Source of the DNA: a virus
Virus record (IMG/VR): IMGVR_UViG_3300030380_006185
Coordinates: 64,001-128,000 of that record
Reading direction: 5' to 3' (one strand)
Length of the DNA: 64,000 bases
The number at the start of each line of letters is the position of its first letter. Within the stretch, counting starts at the first letter, position 1. Below are positions 388 to 63,170 of the stretch, in pieces. Under the pieces are notes generated by a model, which saw only the letters and a list, made by a program, of their open reading frames with translations, was not told the origin of the DNA and ran no database searches. A program made the position numbers and the translations under genes.

Positions 388-1180
388 TTTTGTTTATTCT
401 TCATCAATTCTCAATGTTGAACCAATTATGTTTTTCAGTGTATCCTCACATTCCTTTTTAAATGCACGTAACGATTCATCTATGTTTTCTCTTGTTACCT
501 CATTTGATCCATACTCGTTTTGATACTTAATGTGTTCAATCAAGTCATATAATGGTGCTGCTTCCCTATGGTAATTCACGTCCTCAAAACTATCTAGTAA
601 TTTCTCTAAATTATTTACACTCGTAGTTACCCCTGCTAATAACCCACAATTCAGCATTCCCTCATAATCAAAGTTTAAACTAAATGTATCACCTAATTTG
701 TATGTTTCTTTTTTCTGGGTATTTTCCTTCACGTACCACTCTCCGTTTATGTTTATTCTATGTTCCATTTTATTTATTTTTCCTTTTTATATCACTAATA
801 AAATTTTCTATGTACACTCCTACTCCTATAATACCTAAAACTATTACTAAACCAAGAGAAAAAACCATGAAATACATTAATATCCTAAGTAATAACATTT
901 CCATTATATTAAATTTTCTAATTCATCAATTTTATCACTTATTACCTGCATCTTTCTAGTAATTTTTTCTAATTCACGTTCTTTTTTATGAATAGCATCT
1001 GCATATTGATCACATATATGTCCACCCTCTGGTTCTGCATCTTCCTCCATTTCCCTATGTAATTGTTTTAACTCCTCTATAATACATTTTTGGTCATGTT
1101 CTAAATCCATGTGATCCATCCCTAAATTTAATTTTGCATCTAAAATATCTGTAATCTTCATAATTTTTCTCTTTATTTAT

Positions 1181-1219
1181 ACTATAATATACGAACTTCT
1201 AGTTAATTAAACTATTCCT
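1181..1219 (-). promoter_or_regulatory. Bipartite early promoter (representative copy of about 15): AGGAATA-N~17-TT(C/T)GTATATTAYAG
   Basis: Near-identical copies upstream of genes at ~1367,1719,3728,4929,5349,6159,7052,8005,8938,9924,11355,11606,11869,15428; 1721-1757 and 3730-3766 are identical over 37 bp. Confidence 0.8.
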
Positions 1220-1222
1220 TAT

Positions 1223-1363
1223 CTATTTTTTCCAAATTAACTTCCTATTAAACGAACTTATCATTACCTTATCTTTATTCCTTTGATAATAACTTTCAAA
1301 ACTTATATTTAGTTTTTCCTTAATGTAGTAAGGCCATAATTTCTTTTTTATCTCTTTTTTCAT
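1223..1363 (-). CDS. Small hypothetical protein (46 aa), not in ORF track; candidate leaderless gene
   Basis: Manual translation MKKEIKKKLWPYY...WKK*; ATG 4 nt after TATATTAC box. Confidence 0.55.
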   Translation of the reverse strand: MKKEIKKKLWPYYIKEKLNISFESYYQRNKDKVMISSFNRKLIWKK

Positions 1364-1755
1364 ACATGTAATATACGAACTTCTAGTAAATTAAACTATT
1401 CCCCTAGTATATACGTATTCGTTTGCTGGGTAGTATATAGTAAAAAGCTAGATCTCGTATTGTCCAACTATTTCATTTAGTAGCTCCTCCATTTCTAGCT
1501 CATCATCATGACATTGTTTTGAATTGTCACTATATCCACATAATGTGTGTCTTGACATGTGATATTCTATTATATTTCTTCCATTTACTAATTGCATTCT
1601 ACCATATCCATCACTATCAATATCGTATTGTGGAAATTTTTCGTTTACTACTTCGTAGAATCTACTTCTAATTTCTCTATGTATTTCTTTTTTTGTCATA
1701 ATTTCTCTCTCTAAATATAGTATAATATACGAACTTTTTTTCTAGAAAAATATTC

Positions 1756-2463
1756 CTACTTTTTTAAGAGTTTATATGTTTCTTTCCAATCATTAACTTG
1801 AAATACTTTATGTTTATCTCCCTTTAATACTTTAGCTAAGTCATAATCATTACCTCCAATTTCAGTTTTATCACCGTAGAAGTGAATATTAACATCTTCA
1901 TTTAGGTAATTTAATATCCAATCTTTAGCTTGGCCTTTACTAGCTCCTTTGGGATATATGTCTATTGAAATTTGTCCCCCAACTGAAACTTCTAGTTCTG
2001 GGAATGTGTTCATGATTTTTTCAACCATTTGAATTCTTTCATTAGAATTTTTATCCCATTCATAATAAGCTTCTCTTTCTTCTTGGGTACAATCCCTTCC
2101 AATAACAGAAAAATTTAATAATCCTACTCTTTCTTCAATGTGGTTTGAAGTTCTTTTTTCATAACTAGAACTAACTAGAAACCCTTCTAATAGTTTAATC
2201 AGTTGTGAATTAGGTTTCCATTCATTTTTGTAAATTTCATCCCCATTAACAAATATTTGATTACCACATGATTGGAGTGAGGCTGTTACATTTTTCCATA
2301 TATTTAATCCTACTTGTTCAATAGTTTTATCACTGTTGGAACCTGTTACAAAAAACACCTTTTTTCCTTTCATCCACTCACTAAAAAACTTTTCAAATTC
2401 TTTATCAATTGGTAATCTACTAGGTGTTAAAGTTCCATCTACATCAAATACGTAAGCTATCAT
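1756..2463 (-). CDS. Phosphomannomutase, eukaryote-type HAD-IIB family
   Basis: FDVDGTLT, VTGS, IEER-G-LNFS-IGR, GGQISIDI-PKG and FYGDKT-GGNDY motifs typical of PMM. Confidence 0.85.
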   Translation of the reverse strand: MIAYVFDVDGTLTPSRLPIDKEFEKFFSEWMKGKKVFFVTGSNSDKTIEQVGLNIWKNVTASLQSCGNQIFVNGDEIYKNEWKPNSQLIKLLEGFLVSSSYEKRTSNHIEERVGLLNFSVIGRDCTQEEREAYYEWDKNSNERIQMVEKIMNTFPELEVSVGGQISIDIYPKGASKGQAKDWILNYLNEDVNIHFYGDKTEIGGNDYDLAKVLKGDKHKVFQVNDWKETYKLLKK

Positions 2464-3176
2464 ATTTTTATTTTTATCTGCTTATTACTTTTTCAACCTT
2501 AATAGTTCCCGTGTTAATCATGTTTTTTACTCCAATCCAATCACCTTCATCTGCTATCCATTCTATTTCAAATGGTTTAAACTCGAATTGGAAATTACTT
2601 AAAGCAAATCCCATCCCACTCATTTTAAACTCATCATTATCATTCTTTCTGAATCGTAGTGTGTATTTATTATCACACATACAACTCACTACATAGAATA
2701 TTACTTCTTTAGCATTTTCCTTAACTGTTTTACCATTCATATAAAATGGGTTTTGTAATAACTCTTGATATTTACTCATAACTTTCTTTATTTACTATTT
2801 GAATTTATAAACATTTTTTTAACATCAAATTCTTCCTTTTTAGAAACAATTCCTTTAACAGCTTCATCTACTAACTCTTCAACATTAACTCCTAATTCTA
2901 GCATTTGCTTTTTAAATCCTCTATATGCTTCATATCCTGTATCAATGGGCATTCCTAAAAATTTAACATCATAGATATCAATAAATTCCGTATCTATCCC
3001 AACTGATCCATCTTTTTTATCATAGGCAATTATTTGATGCTCTACAGTTGCTTCTATTGCATCGTTTTTTCCAATTTTAATTTCATTAACAACTGTTACT
3101 AATAATGTTTTACTTCTAATTTTCATAACTTTTTTCCTTTTTTTCTCTATTTATACTATAATATACAAAAGAGCTT

Positions 3177-3707
3177 TTAATTAAGCTCTTCCTCTATTTT
3201 AAATGCTGATTCAACAGGTCGTCTATAACCACCAAACTGCATATCACCATTATCAAATATTACACCACCTTTACATACTAAGGCATGTTTATTAACTAGC
3301 AATATATAAGTTCCTTTTCTAAATCGTTGCATAAATGTTTTAACTGTATATGCTACTTTTTTATGTGTATAGTCCTTATTAATTAATCGTCCACCTGTTT
3401 TAGGTGTATCACCAATGTGTTTTACTTTAATTCGTTTTCCACCATTATCACTAAATAAACTTAATTGTCCTTCAGGTTGGAATTCAATAACTTCATTTTG
3501 TAAATCTTTCATTCTAAGATTACACATTTTAGTTCCTTTACCGTTTTTTCTATTAAATCGTTCCGCTACAAATTCATGTGCTGCTTCATAACTAACATCA
3601 AATGCATTAGAACAAGCCCTAACAAAACAATCATTTTTTTCACCACCTGCTAGTTTTGATTTACTTGTAACATCATAACCGCTTTTAAATACTTTTTCAC
3701 TTAACAT
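3177..3707 (-). CDS. Hypothetical protein, possible papain-like Cys/His peptidase fold
   Basis: NDCFVRA N-terminal Cys helix and later HAL...FD strand; weak pattern only. Confidence 0.35.
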   Translation of the reverse strand: MLSEKVFKSGYDVTSKSKLAGGEKNDCFVRACSNAFDVSYEAAHEFVAERFNRKNGKGTKMCNLRMKDLQNEVIEFQPEGQLSLFSDNGGKRIKVKHIGDTPKTGGRLINKDYTHKKVAYTVKTFMQRFRKGTYILLVNKHALVCKGGVIFDNGDMQFGGYRRPVESAFKIEEELN

Positions 3708-6700
3708 AACTTTCTTTTTTTAAATATACTATAATATACGAACTTTTTTTCTAGAAAAATATTCCTTAATCAAATTCAAATAAATCAATTATATTTTCTT
3801 CTGTTAATTGTGTTTTTTCATGAAAATCCTCATCATACATTTCAAAATCTTCATAATCATCTATTCCATTAACTGTAACTTCACCCTTACATTCTATTCC
3901 ATCACAATCAACGTAAATAAATCTCATACTAACGTTGTGAACATACTTATCTTCTAGTAATTCTTTAATATCATCCCCAATAGCCCTATCAGGTACTTCA
4001 GGTGTTTGATAATAGATTGATCTATGTCCCACACACAAATCAGTTATATATAAATTATTCTTCTCCATTTTTATGTTTCTTTTTTCTAGTATACTTCTTT
4101 TTATTCTTTTGAATACTTGGACGCGTTGCGTCATTAATTTCTTTCTGTGTTACTTTAATCTGTTTCACCTTCTAGTATTGTTACATCAGCATATTTTATT
4201 TTGCCTACTGTTTTTTTACCTAACATATCATAAGTGTATAACGTAACACAAGTAGGACCAAACTTAGTTACATTCATTCCATCTGAAAAACCTTTAAATA
4301 TTGCACCCGTTCCACGTTTCCCTTCACTACCATGTGTTCTAAACTTAGTTGGGTAATCACCATATTTACCATCAGGTCCTTCTTGATAATCTTTATGTCC
4401 TTTAACGTTGAATACTACTTTTTTAAATTGTAACTGTTCTTTAATTTCCTTAATTGTCATAACCTTTTTAATTTTGATGTAATATACGAAAAAGATTAAT
4501 ATAAATCTATTCCTCTCTCAACTCTCAAATTACCTATTAATTTGTGCTGGTAGTTGATTATTTCACCATACAATTCATTAACTAGTTCTTCATCAACCTC
4601 CATGATTGATGGTTCAAATTGGTTAAATACATTATCCACATCTAATAATGCTGTCATGGTACTACCACTACTTACATTTGGGAGATCATTCTCAAATTGT
4701 CCCTCTAGCCATTCTAAATACCAATCCTTTTGTATGAATAGACTTTTTTCTATTTCTACCTTAACACAATCTAGGAATTGTATTTTAGCTATCTTTTCAT
4801 ATCCCTTCTTTGCACTAAGGTTTTGATATGTGTACCAATGTTGAGCTATTTCAAATGAAATATCTATTTCATTTTCTATTATTGTTTTAAATAAATCCTT
4901 TGCTTTCATAATTTTTTTCTTTATTTATACTGAAATATACGAAAATATAGTTATATCTTCTATTCCCTAATTTAAACTTCTAGCCCAAATCACTCTAGCT
5001 ATTTTAAAATCAGATAATAAATTTAATTTCAACCCGTAACATTTAGCAATGTGCTTAATGTGTGGAAGTGCTTCTGTTAATTTTATTTTATTGTTCATTT
5101 CTTCTTTCCTCAAGATTTTTATTTACTGCTGTAATTTGTTCAATTGCTGTTTCTAATAGATTTTTAAAACAACCTGCTTCATATGTGTTTCTATCTCTCC
5201 AATCTAATTTTTCTGATTCTTCTTGTATTTCTTTGAATCGCTTTGGGAGATAATCAGCATATAATTGTATTTGTCTTTCTACAAAGCTATCTCTTTGTAT
5301 TCTTGCTAATTCTTTACTAAATTCCTTTGTCATAACCTTTTTTATTTAATATAATATACGAAATTAAGTTTAATAACCTTATTCCTCTTTAATATAATGT
5401 TTTATCTTTCTTAAATATTCTAGTGCTTTTTCTTCATCTACCCAGTATGCACTTTCACCTGGGGTTGAATTTGAAAATCCTTTAGTAACATGACTTAATC
5501 TTTCCTCTTTAATTTCACAAGAATCAGGATAGAAACTAACTTTTACTACATTAGCCTCAATTCTATAATGTACTTCTGGATCTTCTGGGAATTCTAATTT
5601 TAGTTGCATACTTATTCCTTAGTGAACATTAAGAATTTAATCTGATCAAAGTCATCTAAATAGTTTATTTCAATTTTATGCCCTTTATATACCCCTAAAT
5701 CTTCAGCGTATTCAATAAACGACATTCTATCTTCGGGGTGTGCTTTGGATTGCCATTTATTCCAATCCTCTCTTAATTTAACTTCTAATTCAATATTTTT
5801 ACTCATCATCTTGTTCTTTATTAAATTCATCAATTTGATCTGCTATTTGCATTAATCTTTCTGATGCGAAATTTTGTCCTTCATAGTTACCATCTCGTAA
5901 CAATAGAATAAGTGATGACATTTCTTCTCTCATTCCAAATTCCATTTTGAATGTTATTGTTTCTGCTTCTTTATTCATAACTTTTATTTACTTCTAATTG
6001 ACGTTCTACAAAATAATTTAAACTTTCTAGTGATTTTTTTATATTTTCACTATTATACTCAGACGGTGCTGCGTTTAATGCTTCGTGTAAGCGATTTGAG
6101 TGAAATACAATTTTTCTCTTATAACCTTTTTCTCTTTTCATAACTTTTCTTTAAATATACTGTAATATACGAAAATAATTTTATTCATCCTCTTCCTGAG
6201 TTAACCAAGATTGGAAAGTTATATTATCTAATTCTAAAATTTCTAGAAGCATATCACCTATTTCATTCATTGTTTGTTCTTTTGTTCTAATTAATGATTG
6301 TTCTAAATGACCTGTAGAATTATAATCAACATATTCTTTATGGTCTTTAAGTGTTTCTGCGAAATATTTTAATCGTCGTTTTAATTCTTTCATTTTTCAC
6401 ATTTTATTGAATCCTCTTTAGTAGGTTCTGAGTTTCTTAATCCACATTTGGTACATTCAACTGTACCATCTTTGTCTATTTGTTTATATGTGTGTTTCAT
6501 TGTTGTTTTGCTTTTAATATTGCTAAATATAATCCATAATCAAAATTGTCCCAATGTTCAATCCAGTCAATTACATTTGTTGCATTTCTTTTCATCTTAC
6601 CAACCTTTTTTATATTTTTCTAGAAATTCTTCTGTGTATAAATTACTAGCTCCGTTTCCTAAAACATCTTCCCACCAACGGATACCCATTTGTAAACGTG

Positions 6701-48135: not shown

Positions 48136-48921
48136 TTACACTCCTCTTTCTGTGTCAAATGCTATTATATGGTCTCTACCTGTTAAATTATAGCCATATT
48201 CAGCACATAAATCAAATACTAAAGGATACATTTTAATTAATTCTTTTCTTGTATCACCCGCAGGCATTATAAATGTTTTATGTTTTGGTATTTCCATTTT
48301 AATTCTAAAGTCCTCTATTTCTTTTAAACACTCATCAGTACCATCCCAAACTGGTTTATAATGATAATCAGTGTGGTAGTCTAATGTTTTTCTAATAGCA
48401 CTATAATTTAGTCTTAATTTATTATGTTGCTTAATCATTCTTTCATCTGTTTCTTTTCCATTAGGTGTTAAAGCACCTAATTTAGGAACAGAATTAGAAA
48501 ATTTAGGAGATAGAGAAATCAAACCTAATGGAAAATCAGTTTTAAGAAAATGAGAACCTTCAGTTTCAATAGTAATAAGAATGCCTCTTTGATTTGCAAA
48601 ATGAGTTAACTCATTTACTAATTTAGGATGCATTGTAGGAGAACCACCTGTTAACATCATTTCTTTTACATGGGGGTTTTCATCATATATTTTAATAATA
48701 TCATTAAAATTAAATGTTCCTTTTTCTGGGTGGATGCTTGTGTACCAAGAATCACACCACCCTCCTTCTTCTCCAAAGTAACACCTGTGAGTGCACCCAG
48801 TTGTTCTAACTGCAATGGTAGGTCTTCCAAATCGGCTACCTTCAGATTGAACACACCTATATAATTCTAGTATAGGTAATCTTTTATCAAAATCTTTTAT
48901 TCTTCCTAATGGTTTTTCCAT
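48136..48921 (-). CDS. queE: 7-carboxy-7-deazaguanine synthase (radical SAM)
   Basis: VQSEG...VRTTGC-x3-C...WCDS, LTGGSP, IETEG, LSPK. Confidence 0.92.
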   Translation of the reverse strand: MEKPLGRIKDFDKRLPILELYRCVQSEGSRFGRPTIAVRTTGCTHRCYFGEEGGWCDSWYTSIHPEKGTFNFNDIIKIYDENPHVKEMMLTGGSPTMHPKLVNELTHFANQRGILITIETEGSHFLKTDFPLGLISLSPKFSNSVPKLGALTPNGKETDERMIKQHNKLRLNYSAIRKTLDYHTDYHYKPVWDGTDECLKEIEDFRIKMEIPKHKTFIMPAGDTRKELIKMYPLVFDLCAEYGYNLTGRDHIIAFDTERGV

Positions 48922-48983
48922 ACTATTTTATTAAAATATATTTAATTTTTATGTTGTTATAAGTAACTGTTGATATCCAATAA

Positions 48984-49445
48984 TTATTCTCCATAAATTG
49001 CTGTATTTTTTCCATGTTCCATAAATTCAACTTGTACTACTCTTACTCGTCCATCTGTTTCTTCCTCAACAAACATATTAAGTTTATTGTAGATATACTC
49101 AGCAAATTTTTCTGCACCAGTAGCATCTATTACTCTTAATTGGATTAAATTTTGTGCATCCATCATTCTAAATGAATCCAATTCGGGGTCGTCGTTTGCA
49201 GCAATTAATGTGTGATCAAACATGTAATCCATCCAGTCTTTAGGGGACATACCATCTATTTGGGTTTTAGCTCGTTTCATTCCTCCAAAGTCCCAAACCC
49301 AATTTCTATGGTCAAGTAACCCTTCAAAAGTTACTTTAAATGATACTCCATACCCATGTAAATAACTACAATGTGTTTCTTTTGCTCTCCATTGACGGAA
49401 TACTGTACTAAATCCGTCAAATATTTTAGTTGATTGATGTTTCAT
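48984..49445 (-). CDS. queD: 6-carboxy-5,6,7,8-tetrahydropterin synthase
   Basis: HCSYLHGY, WDFG, FDHT, GAEKFA. Confidence 0.9.
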   Translation of the reverse strand: MKHQSTKIFDGFSTVFRQWRAKETHCSYLHGYGVSFKVTFEGLLDHRNWVWDFGGMKRAKTQIDGMSPKDWMDYMFDHTLIAANDDPELDSFRMMDAQNLIQLRVIDATGAEKFAEYIYNKLNMFVEEETDGRVRVVQVEFMEHGKNTAIYGE

Positions 49446-50311
49446 TATTTTATATTTAATTGTTCTTTTTCATACTCTGAAAGTACTTGTTCAACATATA
49501 TTCTTGCTGTTTCCCATTTTACAGGGCCTGTTTCATCAGCATATCTTACAGGATCAGGTCTTCCCAATTTAATAAATGCTTCTACTCGTTCAACTGAACT
49601 AGCTGATTTGTAATCTGAAAACCAATTATCACCTGAAGTAGATATAATTTGGATTGGTTTGTAACTTGTATTTGTACGAGAATAAACTTCATCAAAATCA
49701 AAACCTAAATATTTACATAGTTTTTCTCCATCTTGTAAGATAGTAAATTTATCACCTTCAAGATAAGGTGTAAAGTAACCTACTTTATCAGCATCCCAAT
49801 TGCCTATTCTAAAAGCTGCATCGTCTGCATCTCTAAACTCTTGTCTGCAATCTGGGTAAATAGCATGATCACCTGCATGGATACCAAGTGCAATATCACA
49901 ACCTTCACCTGTTTGGTTTGCTCTAGATAATGCTACTGCTTGTGTAATAGAGGCAAATATTTTATTTCTATTAGGTACAACAGTTGCTTTCATATTATCT
50001 TCAGCATAATGACCTTCGGGTACTTCATCTCCACCATCCACTAAAGCAGAATCAAGTAAATCAACTAAACCATCTAGCTTAATTACTCTATATTTAACAC
50101 CAGGATGTGAATCCCCATGTACTCCAATATTAATCATTACCTCATTATTAATATAATCTACTAATGATTGAGCGCGTTCTAACTCAACTCTATGTTTTTG
50201 TCCATAATCAAATGAAATAGCTGTTACCGTGTCATATTCTTTAAGACAACGTAACAACAATGTACTGGAATCCATTCCTCCAGATAGGGAAACTACAACA
50301 TGTTTTTCCAT
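49445..50311 (-). CDS. queC: 7-cyano-7-deazaguanine synthase
   Basis: SGGMDS, FDYGQKH, VPNRN, YPDCR. Confidence 0.93.
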   Translation of the reverse strand: MEKHVVVSLSGGMDSSTLLLRCLKEYDTVTAISFDYGQKHRVELERAQSLVDYINNEVMINIGVHGDSHPGVKYRVIKLDGLVDLLDSALVDGGDEVPEGHYAEDNMKATVVPNRNKIFASITQAVALSRANQTGEGCDIALGIHAGDHAIYPDCRQEFRDADDAAFRIGNWDADKVGYFTPYLEGDKFTILQDGEKLCKYLGFDFDEVYSRTNTSYKPIQIISTSGDNWFSDYKSASSVERVEAFIKLGRPDPVRYADETGPVKWETARIYVEQVLSEYEKEQLNIK

Positions 50312-50478
50312 AATTCTTCGTTATTTAAATGTTTAAATTCTTCTATTGTTAATCCTTTCATTAACATAAATGCTTCAAAATCTATGTCTAATAAACGATA
50401 ATAATCATACCAATTTTCTTTCCATTCTTCACGGAATTTTTCAAATTCAATTTTTTTATTTAAATCTTTTTCAGTCAT
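50293..50478 (-). CDS. Hypothetical protein upstream of queC
   Basis: MTEKDLNKK...; ATGA-coupled start. Confidence 0.6.
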   Translation of the reverse strand: MTEKDLNKKIEFEKFREEWKENWYDYYRLLDIDFEAFMLMKGLTIEEFKHLNNEELWKNML

Positions 50479-50567
50479 TCTATCATCATTATTAATATCA
50501 TTATTATGGAAAAGATTACTATACCTAACCATGCTTCAAAACAACCTGTATTTTCTTCTTTACTCAT
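50475..50567 (-). CDS. Micro-ORF, 30 aa, single TM, started by the last junction repeat
   Basis: MSKEENTGCFEAWLGIVIFSIIMILIMMIE*. Confidence 0.6.
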   Translation of the reverse strand: MSKEENTGCFEAWLGIVIFSIIMILIMMIE

Positions 50568-50730
50568 CTTCTATGTTTTTTATTTTTTTAATAATAAACT
50601 CAGATGATATAAGTTCTCTTACCCATCCTTCAATACCATTAAACCCATTTTTAATAATGTCATTACATATATTTTTAGTATAGTTAATAACTAATTCTTC
50701 AAATTCTTTTCTTGAAATTTCTTTACTCAT
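50560..50730 (-). CDS. Cassette micro-ORF, 56 aa
   Basis: MSKEISRKEF...KNIEDE*. Confidence 0.65.
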   Translation of the reverse strand: MSKEISRKEFEELVINYTKNICNDIIKNGFNGIEGWVRELISSEFIIKKIKNIEDE

Positions 50731-50742
50731 TTTTGTTTTGGT

Positions 50743-51039
50743 TTATACAATTTGTGCAATCAATTCATCCTTATTAGTAAAGACATCTTCTTGACTATAC
50801 CAATCGTATGAACTTTGGGTACTTTTTGTATGTGGATGTATGAAATCTCTTTTTGTTTCTATAAGATAATCTATTTCAATACCCGACATTTCAGTAAAAG
50901 TTCCATCTAAATTACCCTTAGTATAAGGTTGTTGTTCGGTAACTCTAATCTTGTCTATCCTATTTTTACTTATCTTTTTATCTCTTAATACATAGACATC
51001 TTGCCCTACTTCATACTTTACATTATATTGTTTACTCAT
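50743..51039 (-). CDS. Cassette ORF, 98 aa
   Basis: MSKQYNVKYEVGQDVY. Confidence 0.75.
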   Translation of the reverse strand: MSKQYNVKYEVGQDVYVLRDKKISKNRIDKIRVTEQQPYTKGNLDGTFTEMSGIEIDYLIETKRDFIHPHTKSTQSSYDWYSQEDVFTNKDELIAQIV

Positions 51040-51233
51040 CTTTGTTTTGGTTTTAAGTATTCTTCAATATCTCTTGACATCTCATCAAAGGTTATCCCTT
51101 GTGTGTCTGCCATATCTTGAATCTGTTTATCAGTAAGTACTAAAAAGTTAGCCTTAGGTTTTCTGTTCTTATGAATTTCATTAGCTTCCTTTAGTAACTT
51201 ACTGACTAATTTCTTATCTTCTTCTTTACTCAT
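51036..51233 (-). CDS. Cassette ORF, 65 aa
   Basis: MSKEE...KPKQR*. Confidence 0.7.
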   Translation of the reverse strand: MSKEEDKKLVSKLLKEANEIHKNRKPKANFLVLTDKQIQDMADTQGITFDEMSRDIEEYLKPKQR

Positions 51234-51487
51234 CTTTGTTTTGGTTTATTTATAAGTAACTTTGTTAATTCTTCTTCAACATCAGGATGATAATATACAT
51301 CAAGTCCATTCCACCAACTAACAAAAGATTCTTCACCCATTCGTTTCTTTAATTGTTTCTTCTTCTTTCTGGGTAATCTACCGTACCATTCTTTATTATT
51401 TTCACAAACTTTCCATTCATGTTGTAATGGTATCACCTCACCCTTAACCTCAATGGTTTCTAACTGTATGTTAATCTCTTTACTCAT
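51230..51487 (-). CDS. Cassette ORF, 85 aa
   Basis: MSKEI...KPKQR*. Confidence 0.7.
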   Translation of the reverse strand: MSKEINIQLETIEVKGEVIPLQHEWKVCENNKEWYGRLPRKKKKQLKKRMGEESFVSWWNGLDVYYHPDVEEELTKLLINKPKQR

Positions 51488-51632
51488 CTTTGTTTTGGTT
51501 TAAGTATTCTTGAAAATTTATTGTTCTATCAACTTCTTTTAGTGTTTCTTCCACCACCATTTTTAGTGTTTCATCTTCAGATTCAACCACCCATCCCTTT
51601 TTATGAACCCATTTGTAATTTACTTCTTTCAT
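51480..51632 (-). CDS. Cassette micro-ORF, 50 aa
   Basis: MKEVNYKW...LNQNKDE*. Confidence 0.65.
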   Translation of the reverse strand: MKEVNYKWVHKKGWVVESEDETLKMVVEETLKEVDRTINFQEYLNQNKDE

Positions 51633-51790
51633 CTTTGTTTTGGTTTAAGTGTTCTGATAGATTTAGGGATATAGGGTAATATTTTAACCTTACCGCCATA
51701 CTCTTCTTTAATGGACTTTATTATAGTTTCTTTCATTTCTTTAGTATACGAACTAAAATCTTCTGGTGTATGTACTGTTATTTTACTCAT
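51629..51790 (-). CDS. Cassette micro-ORF, 53 aa
   Basis: MSKITVHTPE...LKPKQR*. Confidence 0.65.
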   Translation of the reverse strand: MSKITVHTPEDFSSYTKEMKETIIKSIKEEYGGKVKILPYIPKSIRTLKPKQR

Positions 51791-51802
51791 CTTTGTTTGG
51801 GT

Positions 51803-51931
51803 TTATCTAGTTTCATAATAACCTTTGCCTTTGTAATTCACATTTTTGTCTTTTCCAATGTAAAACAAGAACCATATAATGGTAATAATAAAAACCAATT
51901 TAAGTATTAATCCAATATCAATTCTTCTCAT
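51803..51931 (-). CDS. Cassette micro-ORF, 42 aa, single TM
   Basis: MRRIDIGLILKLVFIITIIWFLFY...ETR*. Confidence 0.6.
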   Translation of the reverse strand: MRRIDIGLILKLVFIITIIWFLFYIGKDKNVNYKGKGYYETR

Positions 51932-52124
51932 CTTTGTTTTGGTTTTTAATATTCAACACCCATTCCAGTAAATCAACCATACTACATTGTGTTTCGAATT
52001 GATGATGTTTTTCAGATATGCCCCACAAACCCCCATTTGGTGGATTATTTAAGAAATGAGATAATTCATCTTTATGTTTATTCATTTCTATTAATTTTTC
52101 ATATATTTCTTCTCTACTTCTCAT
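51918..52124 (-). CDS. Cassette ORF, 68 aa
   Basis: MRSREEI...NQNKDEKN*. Confidence 0.7.
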   Translation of the reverse strand: MRSREEIYEKLIEMNKHKDELSHFLNNPPNGGLWGISEKHHQFETQCSMVDLLEWVLNIKNQNKDEKN

Positions 52125-52366
52125 CTTCTTTGTTTTTGTTTAGTATCAATAATATGCTCACCATCACCTAGATGTAATGTTTCCATATGGATTTTAGCTG
52201 AATAAAGGTAATCCTTTTTCCATCCAAAAATATCATCGGTCTGATAACCGTTTCCCATCAAGTATCTTTCAGCATGTAGTTTAGTTTCAAAATACATATA
52301 AGACTTAGTATTATACTTACCATCATATTGATTGAAGTTTATAATTGCTATTGTTTTGTTACTCAT
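52121..52366 (-). CDS. Cassette ORF, 81 aa
   Basis: MSNKT...KQKQRR*. Confidence 0.7.
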   Translation of the reverse strand: MSNKTIAIINFNQYDGKYNTKSYMYFETKLHAERYLMGNGYQTDDIFGWKKDYLYSAKIHMETLHLGDGEHIIDTKQKQRR

Positions 52367-52378
52367 CTTTGTTTTAGT

Positions 52379-52495
52379 TTATAATTTAGTTATTGAATAT
52401 AATAAAATACTTATGACAATTCCTATAAAAATACCAATAGTAATTCCTTTTGATAAAGCCCAGTTCATATCTCTAACGTAATCTTCGTGTCTCAT
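52379..52495 (-). CDS. Cassette micro-ORF, 38 aa, single TM
   Basis: MRHEDYVRDMNWALSKGITIGIFIGIVISILLYSITKL*. Confidence 0.6.
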   Translation of the reverse strand: MRHEDYVRDMNWALSKGITIGIFIGIVISILLYSITKL

Positions 52496-52998
52496 CTTCT
52501 TTGTTTTGGTGGTCTACCTCTTCTTTCTATTGATCTACCAGAGCGATCAAATGTTTTTAAACAATACATATAAAATTCTTCTGTTGTACCATCAAAATTT
52601 ATAATATGCTCTTCATACTCATCTTTTGTCATAACAAATTCTCGTAAAAAACCTTTTTGTAGTGCTTCTAATTTAGCAGTTTCATCTTTTTCAAAATCTT
52701 CAATTAATCGTTTTCTTCGAGCTAAATCGACTTGGTTTGATTCAATTAATCTTTGATGATCATTACCATAAGATTTAAATACTTCATTAAGTTCTATCTC
52801 AGTTAATTTCCACTGCCAGTAATAATGTGAAAATTCATATTCACCGTTTTTAATACGATCTAAAAATGTTGATTTTTTTGGTAATGGTGGGGTTTTTGTT
52901 GTATATCGTCTCCACCAAAAGAATTGATTATAATTTAAGGGTTGTAACTGTTTTATTTTTTGTTTTACAGTTTTTTCATCAGACGTATTGTATAACAT
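52492..52998 (-). CDS. Hypothetical protein heading the cassette array
   Basis: 168 aa, ends RRGRPPKQRR* in the first junction repeat. Confidence 0.75.
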   Translation of the reverse strand: MLYNTSDEKTVKQKIKQLQPLNYNQFFWWRRYTTKTPPLPKKSTFLDRIKNGEYEFSHYYWQWKLTEIELNEVFKSYGNDHQRLIESNQVDLARRKRLIEDFEKDETAKLEALQKGFLREFVMTKDEYEEHIINFDGTTEEFYMYCLKTFDRSGRSIERRGRPPKQRR

Positions 52999-53045
52999 AA
53001 CCTTTAATTTGTAGTAATATAAGAAAAAAACTTGTAATCTCCAAG

Positions 53046-53840
53046 CTATAATCCGTTTATTTCACGAAACTTTTTAACATTATACTCTATAAACTCTAAA
53101 TTAGCATCCTTTTCTTCTATATCTTGAAAATTATTCATATTTGCCTCTGGTTTATGAGGTAAACCTAAATCAAAATACATTTTTTGTTCAATGCCCGCCA
53201 TTACTGGGTTTGATGTATCTATTGATTCAATACATTTCATGTTTTTATATAATCCAAATTCAATTGGGGAAGCAGTGCCTAATAAATGTACTCTATCTGT
53301 TGGGGATAATATTCCATCTTTTATTAAATTGTTTATAACCATATATCTACCAATTGCTTTACCAAAATCTTTATTTGGGTGGGGGCAAACATCATTATAA
53401 TATGAAGCACCGTATGAATATGCTATTTTTTTATATCCTAAATCTTTATACATTTGAGTACATAACGCTGCATAATGTTGTGTTTTAGCTTGTACTACTG
53501 CAACCTTAGTAACTCCTTCAGGTAATTCAATTTGAGACCATATTTTAGCATTTCTAACTGATTCGCTATAATCTTCCCAAACATCAGGTACTATAAATTC
53601 ATCAGGTTTAATTTCTTTAATCCAATGTAGTAAACGATCTGTATTATATGCTTCTCCTAATTCATGTAGTGAATTATCCATTACAACATATCTACCTATA
53701 CTTTTAACATTATTAAAAAATGTTCTATACTCTTCATTTTGATCTAATAAATGAGGTAAACAATAATCATAGTCATTAAATTCAAGACTTTTACTTAATA
53801 AACAAAATGGTACTTCGTGAGATATTTTTACTTTTTTCAT
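53046..53840 (-). CDS. TGT-fold 7-deazaguanine transglycosylase-like protein (DpdA family)
   Basis: MDNS, VPDV, VAVVQ, VHLLG and SIDTS motifs in TGT order; linked to queCDE/folE2. Confidence 0.72.
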   Translation of the reverse strand: MKKVKISHEVPFCLLSKSLEFNDYDYCLPHLLDQNEEYRTFFNNVKSIGRYVVMDNSLHELGEAYNTDRLLHWIKEIKPDEFIVPDVWEDYSESVRNAKIWSQIELPEGVTKVAVVQAKTQHYAALCTQMYKDLGYKKIAYSYGASYYNDVCPHPNKDFGKAIGRYMVINNLIKDGILSPTDRVHLLGTASPIEFGLYKNMKCIESIDTSNPVMAGIEQKMYFDLGLPHKPEANMNNFQDIEEKDANLEFIEYNVKKFREINGL

Positions 53841-53881
53841 AACCTAAATATAATTAATAACCTTTAAAAAAACACGTAACC

Positions 53882-54904
53882 TTAATAAGTTTTAGTGTTA
53901 TCTTCGTCTATTTCTTTTATTTTTTGTTGTAAATTTTGTATAGCAATCCCTGATTTTTTACTAGATGCTCCTTGTTTTTGGATTTTTTGGATTTCATCTA
54001 AATATTGTTGTTTTTCTTTTGAAATTAGAGGGGGAGATGAAGGTAAAATGATTTTAGGGGTTGGTTGTTTTTTAACTAATGTTCTTTTTTTTTCTTTATA
54101 TAAGTTAACTTTAGGTTTATTTTTTAAAAATAAATTATTTGCAGAAATAAGTAACATAACAGCTAAGGGATCAAAAACAAATATAAAAACTAATATAAAC
54201 CAATTTACTACTTGGTCAGTATCTTTTCCTGTAATATTAGCAACATATTTTAAAGGTCCAATTTCAGCAGCAACATCTGAGTTAGTTTCTAGGTCTAATA
54301 TATTTAAATCAAGTTGGGTTACACTATCATTTAAAGCATCTTGTTTTAAAGCTATACTATCTCTTCTAGCAGTTTGAGAATCTAATTGTTGTTGTATAAT
54401 TCTACGAGTTGAAGATGATTGAGTAGTTATAAGTTGCCCTTCACTATTAGTATATTGAATAACATTATTACCTAAACTTTCACTTAATTGAATAATTTGA
54501 GTATTTATATCTTGTTGTTCTTTTGATATGTTTTTTATTTGTTGTTTATATCTATCTCGTTTTTTTACTTGAACTTCAACTTGTTTATCTACTGCTTGCA
54601 TTTTATAGGATGTTTCTTGATATGCAGAAACTAAAAATCCGTAAATTCCAAGTGAGGTTATAGCCATCAATGCAATTAAAGCTGTAATAAGGTATGTTTT
54701 TTTAAGCCAATGGATAGTCTTCCAGAATCTTTCTAAATATGAAGCAGTAATCAGTTTAGATGCTTCAAGTATGCCAGCCATTATAATAACTGCTGTTGCT
54801 TGTGATGCAAATAACTTACTAATACCAAAAACACTATAATATGCCGCTACTGTTGCTAAACTTAAAGCAGCTACTAAAATTAATATTGGGAAAAATCGTT
54901 TCAT
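53882..54904 (-). CDS. Membrane protein with long coiled coil
   Basis: Three N-terminal TMs, coiled coil, EIGPLKYVA, FVFDPLAV TM. Confidence 0.75.
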   Translation of the reverse strand: MKRFFPILILVAALSLATVAAYYSVFGISKLFASQATAVIIMAGILEASKLITASYLERFWKTIHWLKKTYLITALIALMAITSLGIYGFLVSAYQETSYKMQAVDKQVEVQVKKRDRYKQQIKNISKEQQDINTQIIQLSESLGNNVIQYTNSEGQLITTQSSSTRRIIQQQLDSQTARRDSIALKQDALNDSVTQLDLNILDLETNSDVAAEIGPLKYVANITGKDTDQVVNWFILVFIFVFDPLAVMLLISANNLFLKNKPKVNLYKEKKRTLVKKQPTPKIILPSSPPLISKEKQQYLDEIQKIQKQGASSKKSGIAIQNLQQKIKEIDEDNTKTY

Positions 54905-54911
54905 AGCGTGT

Positions 54912-54938
54912 AAAATAAGGAGCCCCTCTTGGGGCTCC
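54912..54938 (-). terminator. Terminator-like hairpin after lysis cassette
   Basis: GGAGCCCC-AAGA-GGGGCTCC then TTATTTT. Confidence 0.7.
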
Positions 54939-54956
54939 AAATATTTTTAAATAAAA

Positions 54957-55112
54957 TTATGATTTAAAAGCAAGTAAGAATTCTCTTACTCCAATACCGA
55001 ATGCAATACCTGCATATAATACAGCACCTTTTAACAATAATGCAACACCAACTCCACCTGCTAAAGCAGCTCGGAACCATGATGAGTTTACGATTGATTT
55101 GATTTTATTCAT
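54957..55112 (-). CDS. 51-aa membrane protein (holin/antiholin candidate), not in ORF track
   Basis: MNKIKSIVNSSWFRAALAGGVGVALLL...REFLLAFKS*. Confidence 0.65.
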   Translation of the reverse strand: MNKIKSIVNSSWFRAALAGGVGVALLLKGAVLYAGIAFGIGVREFLLAFKS

Positions 55113-55131
55113 TATATTGATTTTTGGGGGT

Positions 55132-55836
55132 TTATACTATTTTACTAGATTCAACTTCTTGAATCATTTGGAAATGAACTTTAGCTATTCTATCTCTACC
55201 TTCTTCTGATAAAAGATACTTGTGACAGTTATCTGAATTAGTCATAAAAAAATTTTCAGAAAGTATTGCAGGCATTGAAGTATTAATAAGAACGTAAAAA
55301 TTAGATTCTTGATCTACATCACCATCTGAATAGGTGTCTTTTCTCATGTATTCTCCTGGAAACTCTCTAAGTGCTTTTTCAAATAATATAGTAGCTATAT
55401 CATCCGATTTAGTTTCACCTACTGAAGTATACACTGACCACCCATTAGCAGACTCACTACTAAATCCATTAGCATGTACACTTACATATATGCATTTTTG
55501 TGATGAAGATTTTGCTATTTGGTTGGCTGTTTTAACACGTTCTGAAAGGCTTATATCTTCTTGAGTGTCAACTAAATTAATATATTCGATTCCTGCTTCA
55601 TTGCACATTTTAACTAAACGATTTACAATTGCTCTATTAAATTCTCCTTCAAATAATTGAGTCCCATCAGGCCACACAGGTGATCTTTTGCCTGGTGTTT
55701 GGTATACCCCATCTATAATACCACCATGCCCATTATCAAATATCCAAAGATAATTTGATTTAGGTGTTGGGTTATTTTGGGTAACAGTAAGATCATATTC
55801 TGTCCCACAATTAGGACATTTTATTGTTTTATCCAT
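55132..55836 (-). CDS. N-acetylmuramoyl-L-alanine amidase (Amidase_3), probable endolysin
   Basis: DNGHGG, E..FNR, LSERV..AN, VSVHAN, FYVL...PAILSENFFM; N-terminal CPNC. Confidence 0.92.
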   Translation of the reverse strand: MDKTIKCPNCGTEYDLTVTQNNPTPKSNYLWIFDNGHGGIIDGVYQTPGKRSPVWPDGTQLFEGEFNRAIVNRLVKMCNEAGIEYINLVDTQEDISLSERVKTANQIAKSSSQKCIYVSVHANGFSSESANGWSVYTSVGETKSDDIATILFEKALREFPGEYMRKDTYSDGDVDQESNFYVLINTSMPAILSENFFMTNSDNCHKYLLSEEGRDRIAKVHFQMIQEVESSKIV

Positions 55837-60219: not shown

Positions 60220-61248
60220 TTATTTGTCTTCCAACAAATTTTCAAAAACTTCTTTAATCCATATATCAACATTTCTTATTAAACCTCCAAGTTGGTCTTG
60301 TTGATACATTTCTACAAATTGTGAAGGTAAATAGTTTAAAGGTTCATTTTCTACAAACTTATCTATAAACATTTTATCCTTATCATCCATCATAGGATTT
60401 GACAGATCCATAACCTTATATTTATTTTCTAATAATTCTATATCGTGTAAAACACGAGCATATATTACATGATCTTTTAATTTTTCTTCACATAAATCTA
60501 ATAGATCATCAAAAGACATATTTTTTTCTGTAAGTTCAGGAAATAATTTATATAATTTTTTAAGTCCTAATCCTTTAATACCTGGTATTCCATCAGAGTT
60601 ATCTCCCATTAATAATTTATATAGTAAAAAATTGTGAGGTGTAACTTTAAATTTATCCTTTACAGTTTGACTTACATAAAACTCTTTTTCAATTGGTCTA
60701 TAAACAACAGTGTTTTCATCAACTAATTGAAGATAATCTTTATCACTAGATACTATAAAAGCCCTATCATCAGGTTTAGTAGGTAATGTTTGAGCTAAAT
60801 AAGCTATAATATCATCTGCTTCTACTTTATCAATTGATATAGTTTTTACTGGAAGGGTTTTTAGGTACTGAATTATTCTGGTGATTTGGTCAACTTTAGC
60901 TTGGTCTTCTTCTTCTATGTTATCAAATATATCCCAATTAGTAATTCTATTTACATTCCTATTAGATTTATATTCAGGGATAATGTTTTTTCTATTATTA
61001 GAAGACCCAACCCCATCAAACACAACATATACTTGAGTTGGTTGGATATGTTTAATCAAAAAACCAAGTGATCGAAAAAATCCCCCTAAACCTCCAATAT
61101 GTGCCCCATCGGGGTTGACAGCTCTTATAACACTAAAATTTCTGAAAAACAAATTTAAGCCGTCGATGAGCATATATCGTTCGGTTGTTGGCAATTCTTG
61201 TCCGTTTTCTTGAATATTATCAAGGAGGTTTAGAAGGTCTTTTTTCAT
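60220..61248 (-). CDS. 5'-3' exonuclease / RNase H (FEN family)
   Basis: IDGLN, VFDG, YKSNR, EADD, SSDKD, GDNSDGIPGIKGLG. Confidence 0.93.
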   Translation of the reverse strand: MKKDLLNLLDNIQENGQELPTTERYMLIDGLNLFFRNFSVIRAVNPDGAHIGGLGGFFRSLGFLIKHIQPTQVYVVFDGVGSSNNRKNIIPEYKSNRNVNRITNWDIFDNIEEEDQAKVDQITRIIQYLKTLPVKTISIDKVEADDIIAYLAQTLPTKPDDRAFIVSSDKDYLQLVDENTVVYRPIEKEFYVSQTVKDKFKVTPHNFLLYKLLMGDNSDGIPGIKGLGLKKLYKLFPELTEKNMSFDDLLDLCEEKLKDHVIYARVLHDIELLENKYKVMDLSNPMMDDKDKMFIDKFVENEPLNYLPSQFVEMYQQDQLGGLIRNVDIWIKEVFENLLEDK

Positions 61249-61255
61249 ATAACTT

Positions 61256-62332
61256 TTATTCTGGTTCAGTAACAAAGGCTTCAACTTGTGAAGTATCGGA
61301 ATTTTCTTCAATTATATTAAAGTCTCCTCCACCTAACACACGTCTCCACTCTTCTACTTGTGATTCTTTGTATTTCTTTAAATCTTTATCTGTGTCTGTA
61401 ATAAATCCATGAGGGGTCATAATAATTCTTCCTCTAGATTGTATACCATTAATGTGATTTTTATCAATCTGTAAATTGGTTCGTTTAGCAAATTCTACTT
61501 GTTTACCATCTTTGATAGCTTTTAGCTTGGATGTTCCAGAATCTGCAATATTTCCAAATGTTACTACAAATGTAGCATCAAACCACATTGCAAAACCACC
61601 TTTATTCATTAATTTAGGTTGTCCCATAGGTACAACAGGTTTAGCTGCCCAAACTTTATTAACACAAACTAAAGTATTCGTGTATTTTGAGCTTTCTTTA
61701 CGTGATAATGTAATACGCTGGTTAACATTATTTCCGAATTGAGTTGACATAGCACCTGCATTCCATTCATTGTTGTTTTTGTTTGATTTAACAGACATTT
61801 CACAAGGTACAGAACCAATTGAATCCCATAAAAATAAGAGATCATATGGTAAATTACCTTTCTTTTGTTCATCCATTAAATCTAAAATAAATGCAGCAAC
61901 ATCTTCAATTGTGTTAATAGATTCTCTATCAACATAAATAAATTGACCTTCATAATCAATTAATTCACCTGTATTTTCATCTAATATTTCATTAACTTCA
62001 AAGCCCATCATCTTAGCATGCTCCCAAGACCACTTCATTTCAGTTACAATAAAAACAGGTAATATACCACGTTTTTGGGCAGCAACTGCTGCCTCAAGTA
62101 ACGCGGTAGTTTTTCCTGTGTCTGAATGTCCTCTAAGTAAAACAATATGACCTAAAGGTATTCCTGGTACTGATGTAACTTCTTGAAATGCCGGTGAAAG
62201 TGGGATCCAATCTTGTGCTTTAAATTTAACATTAGATGCTAAACCTTTTTTGTTTTTAAAACTATTTAAATTAAAACTAGATTTCAATTCCTTATCTACT
62301 GCTTCTGACAGTGATTTTCTTTTTCTTGGCAT
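61256..62332 (-). CDS. RecA/UvsX-like recombinase
   Basis: GHSDTGKT, WDSIG, GGFAMWF. Confidence 0.85.
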   Translation of the reverse strand: MPRKRKSLSEAVDKELKSSFNLNSFKNKKGLASNVKFKAQDWIPLSPAFQEVTSVPGIPLGHIVLLRGHSDTGKTTALLEAAVAAQKRGILPVFIVTEMKWSWEHAKMMGFEVNEILDENTGELIDYEGQFIYVDRESINTIEDVAAFILDLMDEQKKGNLPYDLLFLWDSIGSVPCEMSVKSNKNNNEWNAGAMSTQFGNNVNQRITLSRKESSKYTNTLVCVNKVWAAKPVVPMGQPKLMNKGGFAMWFDATFVVTFGNIADSGTSKLKAIKDGKQVEFAKRTNLQIDKNHINGIQSRGRIIMTPHGFITDTDKDLKKYKESQVEEWRRVLGGGDFNIIEENSDTSQVEAFVTEPE

Positions 62333-62342
62333 ATAAATTTAT

Positions 62343-63170
62343 TTAAAAGGGTAAACCGTCTTCTTCGTCAAACATCTCACTGAATTTATCAGCTTTAGTT
62401 TCTTTCTTTTTAGTAGAGAGGCTATAATTTGATTCAACTTTTTCATCATCAAAACCACTTGCAGGTTCAGAAGAAATTTCTCCTTCTTCATCTGTTGGGT
62501 CTAACCATTCTTGTAAAGCACCTTTAAGAGTGTCAAAAGGGAGTGGACGATAAGTTTCTTTAGGGTTTTGTTGGTCATCTAACCATGTTTCAACTTGCGC
62601 CTTATCTTTTGATAGTGGGGTTTGCTTCATTGAAGGGGAGATAGTTGTTTTGTTGTACTGAGTACCATTAGTATCAGGTCCAGTAGTAACTAATTTAATG
62701 TCTCTACCATTTACAATATCTGTGAAATCACCTACTTCTTCATCAGCAGCTAAATTCAAAAATGCTTCATATACTTGTTTACCAAATTCCCACATTTGAA
62801 CACCTTCTGATTCCTGTCCTCTAACAACTACAGGTACAAAAGTACGGGTTTTTGGATCTAACTTTTTAGCTAGAGACCAATTCTCTTTATCATTAGTACC
62901 TCTAAGTTGCTTTGCAAACTCAGCAATTGGATCTTTTTCATCCCAATTTAGTGGAGAAGCTAGCATTCTAAATTTACCAATATTATAATAAAATTGCATT
63001 TCAGTAAAAGGATATTCTTTATTGTATTTAAATGGTACAACTCTTACTGTTTGTTTACCTATTGAAGGTTTGAATTTTTTTAACTGAGGGTAATCAGATT
63101 TGTTACTTCCATTGTTATTGGAAGATTTTTGGAATGTGTCAAGTTTTTTCTTGATTGCATCTAGATTCAT
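62343..63170 (-). CDS. Single-stranded DNA-binding protein (gp32-like)
   Basis: VRVVP, DPIAEF, WEFGKQVY, GRDI, acidic tail ending DGLPF. Confidence 0.8.
   Translation of the reverse strand: MNLDAIKKKLDTFQKSSNNNGSNKSDYPQLKKFKPSIGKQTVRVVPFKYNKEYPFTEMQFYYNIGKFRMLASPLNWDEKDPIAEFAKQLRGTNDKENWSLAKKLDPKTRTFVPVVVRGQESEGVQMWEFGKQVYEAFLNLAADEEVGDFTDIVNGRDIKLVTTGPDTNGTQYNKTTISPSMKQTPLSKDKAQVETWLDDQQNPKETYRPLPFDTLKGALQEWLDPTDEEGEISSEPASGFDDEKVESNYSLSTKKKETKADKFSEMFDEEDGLPF

Follow-up and report, generated by a model that had tools for sequence, protein, structure and literature searches.

In lambdoid phages, short boundary sequences shared between modules guide homologous exchange, as described in the modular theory of phage evolution. 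In T4-type phages, promoter-early stem-loops (PeSLs), which are repeats composed of a promoter and a terminator, flank ORFans in hyperplastic regions. They mediate modular shuffling and the formation of mini-circles, which were shown by PCR, and homologous recombination was proposed for these events (PMC2839356, PMC4122927). In Cluster K mycobacteriophages, start-associated sequences (SAS) of 13 bp with the Shine-Dalgarno core AGGAG are located 3-7 bp from start codons (PMC3203893). Here we describe an array of eleven mini-genes, referred to as cassettes, in a window of 64,000 nucleotides. The window covers bases 64001-128000 of the IMG/VR record IMGVR_UViG_3300030380_006185, a 96%-complete uncultured virus of 156,273 bp (G000 as a whole) whose GC content is 29% and whose genes are nearly all encoded on the minus strand. 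The cassettes are connected by a repeat of about 25 nt, referred to as the joint or motif. We consider it probable, at roughly 70%, that this element acts in translation as a stop-restart joint and serves at the same time as a crossover point for short-homology recombination.

Judged by analogy, the PeSL of T4-type phages is the closest described system. In both cases, short conserved repeats flank small ORFan genes in a variable region of large lytic phages, and where close relatives differ by indels or replacements, these end in the repeats. Like the PeSL phages, the phage described here has T4-like recombination genes (gp32-like and UvsX-like). However, PeSL is an intergenic element with a sigma-70 promoter and a terminator hairpin, and each gene is its own transcription unit, whereas the joint has no promoter, hairpin or intergenic space. 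It is instead a translational stop-start overlap of ~25 nt with a stop in every frame, and it is common to phages sharing almost no genes.

Eleven minus-strand copies of TTAAACCAAAACAAAG-ATG-AGTAAA were found at 50559-52513 of the window (Table 1). Eight of them had at most three mismatches to the 23-mer on the minus strand, and 0 were expected from 100 shuffles. Three of these were exact, two had one mismatch, two had two, and one had three. The remaining three copies were more diverged, and two of them (J1 and J3) carried a 3-nt AGA insertion ahead of the ATG. The ATG-to-ATG spacing within the array was 129-309 bp. The 11-mer core did not occur outside the array in the 64-kb window, and the 13-mer core, with up to one mismatch, did not occur outside the array in the whole 156,273-bp record. 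Each copy started one ORF, and the eleven ORFs abutted or overlapped without spacers. Their products started with MSK (six), MR (three), MSN or MKE. Before the stop codon they ended in KPKQR (three), KQKQRR, NQNKDE or NQNKDEKN, or the ORF stopped at or before the TAA of the motif.

These observations agreed largely with the preliminary description of the locus. The eleven minus-strand copies, three exact and two with one mismatch, were recovered, and the reported KPKQR and NQNKDE endings, or a stop just before the repeat, were seen. One unrelated ORF per interval was also found, but the reported length range of 38-98 aa did not stand, as the last ORF has 30 aa. The repeat supplied the next ATG in 11 of 11 cases; the MSK and MR starts were present, and MSN and MKE had to be added. 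The motif was restricted to the array within this genome, as expected from its reported absence from core genes, and its non-palindromic nature was confirmed. Conservation at the nucleotide level with a stop for any incoming frame, which had also been proposed, held over the 239 distinct copies described below.

IMG/VR was scanned with the 20-mer of the motif, which gave at least 119 stretches. Two or more same-strand copies at gene-typical spacing were present in 88 of the 119 fetched viral contigs. A sequence logo of 276 distinct copies from the fetched contigs showed that only positions -16 to +9 were conserved, reading TT AAACCAAAACAAAG ATG AGT AAA. On the 3' side of this block, only codon periodicity and A-rich codons 2-5 were visible. 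The ATG was invariant, and 229 of 239 distinct copies started ORFs of at least 20 codons with a median of 61 aa. The motif has one built-in stop per frame, namely TAA at -15 in the frame of the ATG, TGA within ATGA, and TAA at +6. The upstream ORF stopped at one of them in 202 of the 239 copies (47 at TAA-15, 58 at TGA and 97 at TAA+6). Stops that were not used were also kept, with T-15 in 71-72%, A+4 in ~100% and T+6 in ~90% of these copies. All three stops are used and each is conserved even if unused, which meant that the conservation is at the DNA level and not at the peptide level.

The ends of nucleotide homology were compared in 165 homologous cassette pairs from different loci, which are cited below by L numbers. 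In 68 pairs, the homology was colinear through the 300-nt flanks. These pairs represent the same phage sampled twice, and thus the arrays were reproducible. In the non-colinear pairs, the left end was located 7-26 nt before the ATG in 87 of 93 cases, and the right end 0-30 nt past the next ATG in 41 of 43 cases. Cassette families recurred among different neighbours, and one 45-46-aa family, for example, was found in three contexts. The 98-aa cassette had 97-99% nucleotide identity among this phage, L058 and L014, with unrelated flanks on both sides, and the identity broke inside the motif. L073 and L103 had identical flanks and differed by an indel of one 179-bp cassette bounded by a 24-nt repeat. 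The AGA variant of the joint moved with the 38-aa cassette (L014 and L106), and the upstream half of the joint varied with the neighbour, which indicated that the crossovers took place within the A/C-rich core. In these alignments, the end points of cassette insertions, deletions, replacements and transfers were shown to lie in the joint.

The same was seen in close relatives. Four contigs with a 96-97%-identical 168-aa gene (this phage, L126, L127/L075 and L128) had four different cassette sets. The variable segment was located between the 168-aa gene and a conserved 61/79-aa gene before queC. It contained eleven cassettes in this phage, two (99 aa and 30 aa) in L126, which is a 156-kb contig, two others in L128, and at least six others in L127/L075. 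When L075 and L126 were aligned with this phage, homology stopped and resumed in motif copies. In two more loci, the 168-aa protein was 100% identical. L255, from Tara Oceans, was 99.7% identical to this phage down to J2 and 97.6% identical from J8. The difference was a clean loss (or gain) of six cassettes over 1,110 bp, and the two matches overlapped by the 23-nt motif. L256 was 100% identical down to J2 and unrelated beyond it. Therefore, the repeat behaved as the cassette shuffling point that the preliminary description had proposed, with an order that varied among relatives and breakpoints in the repeat. Three outcomes that had been named beforehand as speaking against this proposal were an identical order, breakpoints elsewhere, and the motif in front of core genes; none of them occurred.

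All data are metagenome assemblies, in which repeats invite misjoins. It is very improbable that assemblers joined unrelated cassettes at the short repeat and produced chimeric contigs, although two junction strings specific to this phage (exact 36-43-mers) had no match in the IMG/VR or JGI contig scans. The phage was present in Tara Oceans and other marine assemblies in exact-protein look-ups, and its whole array order was reproduced in independent assemblies from different samples and assemblers (Tara Oceans ENA, JGI 3300030103 and Logan ERR2750828). Other arrays, such as L007/L016/L032 and L065/L082/L119, were recovered in identical form from two or three samples. Moreover, some contig names show large k-mers (k119 and k127) that exceed the repeat in length, and the cassettes are under purifying selection, as described below.

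The spread of the motif was then compared in whole contigs, namely G001 (242 kb), G003 (126 kb) and G004 (210 kb). They shared 11-18 of the 197 proteins of this phage at 24-63% identity, and the terminase large subunit was the only protein common to all four genomes at the BLAST level. Each of the three nevertheless had the same motif and one clustered array. Homologs of cassettes of this phage were found in G001 (79% aa identity) and G004 (90%). In G002, the core proteins were 31-43% identical to those of this phage, and its 98-aa cassette was 97% identical. Near-identical cassettes in such distant genomes meant that single cassettes moved recently between distant phages.

The eleven ORFs had no mutual similarity beyond the motif-coded ends (best E 0.17). 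They had no Pfam family, and the sole PHROG match was a weak one of the 98-aa ORF to a family of unknown function. A membrane-type hydrophobic segment was present in three of the eleven products. Co-oriented small genes with shared first and last codons resemble a paralog array, which could be an old tandem gene family that kept only its ends by common descent and not by exchange. This explanation is hardly credible. The bodies are dissimilar and differ in length and type (membrane and soluble), and the shared ends are read in three frames. In addition, near-identical cassettes occur in the genomes described above, in which the core proteins are 31-43% identical or not detectably related. Over all loci, 385 motif-headed ORFs with a median of 61 aa were clustered into 74 families and 177 singletons. 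The median dN/dS of the cassettes was 0.30 in 39 non-colinear pairs. On these sequence data, the mini-ORFs are real genes.

We also determined which organisms carry the motif. In 596 Gb of prokaryote genomes, the 20-mer occurred four times, always in AT-rich contigs of metagenome-assembled genomes (MAGs), and two of these had a second or third copy nearby. A host-derived signal was rejected on the basis of this small number. When a 30-nt junction was compared by BLAST with 50,697 GenBank phage records, all matches were partial and attributable to chance, and the 98-aa cassette had no tblastn match in GenBank phage records. The motif string was not found in any paper, and keyword searches of the literature gave nothing on the motif. 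The nearest cultured relative was Flavobacterium phage vB_FspM_immuto from the Baltic Sea (QueC 76%, ribonucleotide reductase 74%, UvsX-like protein 68% and baseplate-J-like protein 45% identity), and it had 0 motif copies. From these distributions, the motif is a property of a set of uncultured phages. One contig of this phage with the identical 168-aa protein (L257; contig NYUV01000053.1) was binned in a public MAG (NCBI GCA_002684275.1). The taxon of this MAG may be a clue to the host, unless the contig was binned in error.

Searches for an enzyme were performed with hidden Markov models (HMMs). No match to tyrosine recombinases (PF00589) or serine recombinases (PF00239) was found in the 96%-complete genome, and the control for PF00589 matched in 14 of 14 genomes. 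This was in accordance with the earlier observation that no integrase is present. The array resembles integrons in that co-oriented, apparently promoterless and unrelated cassettes are located at one site beside a conserved gene, that their content differs between close relatives, and that cassettes occur across unrelated carriers. However, there is no IntI or other tyrosine or serine recombinase in this phage, no folded attC and no attI/Pc platform. In addition, genes start and stop within the recombination site itself, and crossovers take place at varying points within it. The cassettes abut without spacers, the internal promoter signal was not above chance, and no upstream promoter was identified. 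The term integron-like, used in the preliminary description, is an analogy of outcome only, as the defining integron parts are absent. The lambdoid boundaries are sporadic and differ from border to border, whereas here one fixed sequence with a coded function flanks every cassette.

It is quite unlikely that a dedicated site-specific system acts here, in which an unrecognised recombinase or nuclease would read the 25-nt site as IntI reads attC and attI. Every letter of the 25 nt, whether A or not, is conserved between phages sharing almost no genes. Each genome has its arrays in one or two clusters, and the cassette content changes while the site, next to a conserved gene, stays fixed. These features would fit such an enzyme. 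However, apart from the empty recombinase searches, the terminase was the sole BLAST-level protein common to the four array-bearing genomes, and the 168-aa neighbour was absent from G001-G004. The site is non-palindromic and non-folding, the motif variants placed the crossovers at differing points within it, and the left anchor is a chance look-alike in coding sequence.

We instead propose that ordinary recombination over short homology, or annealing, most likely accounts for the crossover, without a dedicated site-specific enzyme. A T4-like trio is located side by side at 60220-63170 on the minus strand and encodes a 5'-3' exonuclease, a RecA/UvsX-like ATPase and a gp32-like single-strand-binding protein. 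These phage functions or host enzymes could carry out the crossover. We infer homology-driven exchange by general functions because recombination genes are present, no tyrosine or serine recombinase was found, and no shared factor was detected. Since the same letters flank every cassette, crossovers at the joint can insert, delete, replace or exchange whole cassettes. Such exchange was seen among members of a single phage population, among close relatives and also among very distant phages, and the distant partners presumably co-infect the same marine hosts. The array would have entered its site via recombination with the motif-like CCACCAAAACAA, which encodes the AT-hook tail of the 168-aa gene.

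On the mRNA, the joint would end any incoming ORF at TAA-15, at the TGA in ATGA or at TAA+6, with one stop per frame. Translation would restart at the ATG behind an unstructured A-rich leader without a Shine-Dalgarno sequence, as used by Bacteroidota ribosomes. With a stop in every frame and a restart, a single transcript could serve for the translation of many promoterless mini-genes in a row, irrespective of the frame of the neighbour. In Flavobacterium johnsoniae, A at -3, -6, -12 and -13 raises initiation, as observed by ribosome profiling and reporters, and the ribosomes ignore Shine-Dalgarno sequences (PMC6847099). Each of these four positions was at least 97% A in the 276 copies, and there was no G-rich block. 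The RNA of six junctions had folding energies of -0.8 to -5.1 kcal/mol with z of -1.2 to +1.0, and the core was unpaired in every structure. The motif is A/C-rich on one strand, non-palindromic and non-folding. Its sequence thus has the four A positions, the lack of a Shine-Dalgarno sequence and the low structure of Bacteroidota-type initiation regions. These features and the published Flavobacterium data point to a role of the joint in translation.

The motif was then compared with ordinary gene starts. The 197 ordinary starts of this phage were also A-rich and had no Shine-Dalgarno sequence, but C was present at -5, -10 and -11 in only 5-7% of them, whereas the motif has near-invariant C at these positions and G at -1. 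Because ordinary starts rarely have C there, the motif is a special form of the local start context and not a generic one. A generic start context was rejected on this basis, and also because TTAAACC was not tied to other gene starts. SAS are the most similar in placement. Like SAS, the copies are asymmetric one-orientation repeats that sit at the start codons of some non-structural genes, which belong to different families. They are absent from host genomes, the upstream stop is inside the repeat in some copies, and a role in translation may be suspected for both. Unlike SAS, which are of the GGGATAGGAGCCC type, the motif has another sequence, no Shine-Dalgarno core and a fixed distance to the ATG. 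SAS are confined to one phage cluster and were not reported as recombination breakpoints (PMC3203893), whereas the joint spans distant phages.

The fixed distance to the ATG, a -16 to +9 block that has the size of a single-subunit RNA polymerase promoter, and the invariant C and G outside the A-rich rule could indicate that the motif is primarily an expression signal for a specific factor. It would then be a leaderless promoter, a translational operator or an RNA-processing site, and recombination would be a by-product. The phage also has other stereotyped start-region repeats for other gene classes, which is in line with such a signal. We regard this explanation as unlikely. Multisubunit RNA polymerase and sigma-70 region 2 were not detected in the genome. 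The searches for RegA and T7-type RNA polymerase were empty, although the positive controls were equally silent. The motif has no -35/-10 hexamers, and sigma-70-like sites in 48500-55500 were at chance level (44 vs 43.2 expected). The Bacteroidota -7 box TAnnTTTG was absent from the motif and the junctions, and the array had a single one, within the 81-aa ORF. Whole-genome BLAST comparison gave no candidate trans-acting factor common to the array-bearing phages. Finally, three frame-specific stops are kept and used, which a promoter would not need.

Several points weigh against the stop-restart joint with short-homology crossover. A 25-nt repeat is short for RecA/UvsX-type strand exchange. The Bacteroidota host is itself inferred from the nearest isolate and the absence of Shine-Dalgarno sequences. 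The A-rich Bacteroidota rule leaves C-5, C-10, C-11 and G-1 unaccounted for, and UCCC at -14 to -11 hurt translation in F. johnsoniae (PMC6847099). Maintenance of the motif counts in favour of the joint. In cassette pairs with dS of 0.27-1.1, the 25-nt joint was 89.6% identical, compared with 38.7% in the 30 nt upstream of it, but the former value is partly inflated by the selection of copies with at most four mismatches. A less biased comparison starts from protein homology. Homologs with 65-80% aa identity kept the motif in 27 of 30 cases, whereas those below 65% mostly had an ordinary start region without the motif (21 of 30). Because distant homologs have ordinary starts, the motif tracks array membership and not gene family, and it is unnecessary for expression as such.

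A further reading goes beyond this and is held tentatively. The joint would serve phages of several families as a standard connector to a common pool of mini-genes, in the manner of an integron that lacks an integrase. Its letter-perfect conservation would come mainly from recombination drive, with translation secondary. The self-propagating spread of the joint may then pass through excised circles. The three-frame stop and restart would let any cassette work wherever it landed, and unrelated marine phages would trade plug-in genes.

The features of the locus are listed in Table 1.

Table 1. Joint copies (J1-J11), cassette ORFs and anchor genes of the locus, in window coordinates
Feature	Position	Strand	Remarks
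Conserved 168-aa gene	52492..52998	-	AT-hook-like C-terminus RRGRPPKQRR; left anchor of the variable region; final codons are J1; ~97% nt identity to L075 ends in the motif
J1, AGA before ATG (ATG 52493-52495)	52487..52513	-	Starts the 38-aa ORF
Cassette ORF, 38 aa, hydrophobic segment	52379..52495	-	94-97% aa homologs in L014, L106
J2, 2 mismatches	52358..52380	-	Breakpoint of L255 deletion and L256 replacement
Cassette ORF, 81 aa	52121..52366	-	
J3, AGA-insertion variant (ATG 52122-52124)	52116..52141	-	Family D15
Cassette ORF, 68 aa	51918..52124	-	Homologs: 79% aa in L042/G001, 65% in L077
J4, 2 mismatches	51923..51945	-	
Cassette ORF, 42 aa, hydrophobic segment	51803..51931	-	90% aa homolog in L023/G004
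J5, 1 mismatch	51782..51804	-	
Cassette ORF, 53 aa	51629..51790	-	79% aa homolog in L106, dN/dS 0.31
J6, 3 mismatches	51624..51646	-	
Cassette ORF, 50 aa	51480..51632	-	
J7, exact	51479..51501	-	
Cassette ORF, 85 aa	51230..51487	-	Exact protein in 11 contigs of other assemblies (8 places listed), same order
J8, exact	51225..51247	-	Second breakpoint of L255 deletion
Cassette ORF, 65 aa	51036..51233	-	63-65% aa homologs in L007/L016/L019; dS ~0.95, motif identical
J9, exact	51031..51053	-	
Cassette ORF, 98 aa	50743..51039	-	97-99% nt identical in L058, L014
J10, 1 mismatch	50722..50744	-	
Cassette ORF, 56 aa	50560..50730	-	
J11, upstream half diverged (ATG 50565-50567)	50559..50581	-	Right end of the segment replaced between this phage and L126
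Cassette ORF, 30 aa, hydrophobic	50475..50567	-	Conserved with L126, L106, L014
Conserved 61-aa gene (79 aa from start 50532)	50293..50478	-	Right anchor of the region; ATGA overlap with the 30-aa ORF; overlaps queC

The neighbouring genes were also compared. Homologs of the 168-aa gene were found in at least 80 viral loci, mostly in the tightly packed order 168-aa gene, DpdA-like gene and queC, without an array. The 264-aa DpdA-like gene and queC were located within ~25 nt in at least 20 related loci. In the clade of this phage, the order was DpdA-like gene, 168-aa gene, array, 61/79-aa gene and queC. The array had been said to interrupt the dpdA-queC linkage, and this applies, with the nuance that the 168-aa and 61/79-aa genes also intervene. 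In this clade, the 168-aa gene was truncated exactly at the motif-like stretch CCACCAAAACAA that codes for its tail. The truncation looks like a footprint of the recombination that first placed the array at this site. The 168-aa gene as an obligatory platform was rejected, since it is absent from G001-G004 and most of the 80 homolog loci are array-free.

The 168-aa family has a conserved AT-hook-like C-terminal tail, RRGRP(P)K, has no Pfam or PHROG match, and is usually located beside the DpdA-like gene and queC. From this context, the protein may be a DNA-binding partner of the 7-deazaguanine module. The so-called dpdA gene (53046-53840, minus strand) had a weak, below-cut-off match to DUF6610 (E 0.0013), belonged to a PHROG of unknown function and had no PDB relative. 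DUF6610 is the DpdA4 subgroup (PMC10516641). The DpdA-like gene directly precedes queC in many relatives. A terminator-like site, made up of a strong GC hairpin (8 pairs, of which 7 are G-C) and a subsequent T-run, was found at 54919-54938 on both strands. It is located ~15 nt upstream of the ATG at 54903-54905, which is the likely true start of a 340-aa membrane protein, and leaves no room for a promoter.

Other repeats were observed in the genome. About nine GTATATTATAGTATAATTAAAA-type repeats were located ahead of small genes in 59.3-67.7 kb of G000, with the last copies at ~1100-3740 of the window. They are probably early promoters with a shared leader and form a start-region class distinct from the junction motif. 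AAATAAAAGTTATG occurred about ten times in 54.2-154.4 kb of G000 and ended in a start codon, for example, at 5989, 6931, 7985, 15424, 24963, 25299, 60204 and 61260 of the window on the minus strand. A similar sequence, AAACCAAAATTAAAAGTTATG, was present in the relatives L145, L152 and L153. The AAATAAAAGTTATG element may be a promoter or a start signal for another gene class. A 15-nt tandem repeat, CAGGAAGTGCTGATA, was found at both record ends (G000 1-96 and 156166-156252, outside the window), which suggests that the record is circularly permuted or was joined within a repeat-rich gene. The G002 record (IMGVR_UViG_3300030102_006934, 380 kb) contained the baseplate-J-like gene twice (27 kb and 259 kb) and the UvsX-like gene twice (19 kb and 252 kb), and it had two motif arrays at 90.6-92.3 kb and 375-380 kb. 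This record, labelled complete, may be two related phage genomes joined together.

Small ORFans of obscure origin make up most phage genes, and little is understood of how they pass from one phage to another. The present case offers a testable route, with a 25-nt stop-start joint, exact breakpoints and recent events in one Tara Oceans population, by which single genes of 100-300 bp are transferred between phages that have hardly anything else in common. The PeSL idea, which was built on transcription signals of T4-like phages from enterobacteria and Vibrio, is extended by this case to a translational joint in marine phages whose hosts are probably Flavobacteriia. The case also suggests how very compact gene coupling is possible in hosts that do without Shine-Dalgarno sequences. 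A scan for the motif provides a handle to pull arrays of accessory genes from metagenomes, and these arrays are likely enriched in host-takeover and anti-defence genes.

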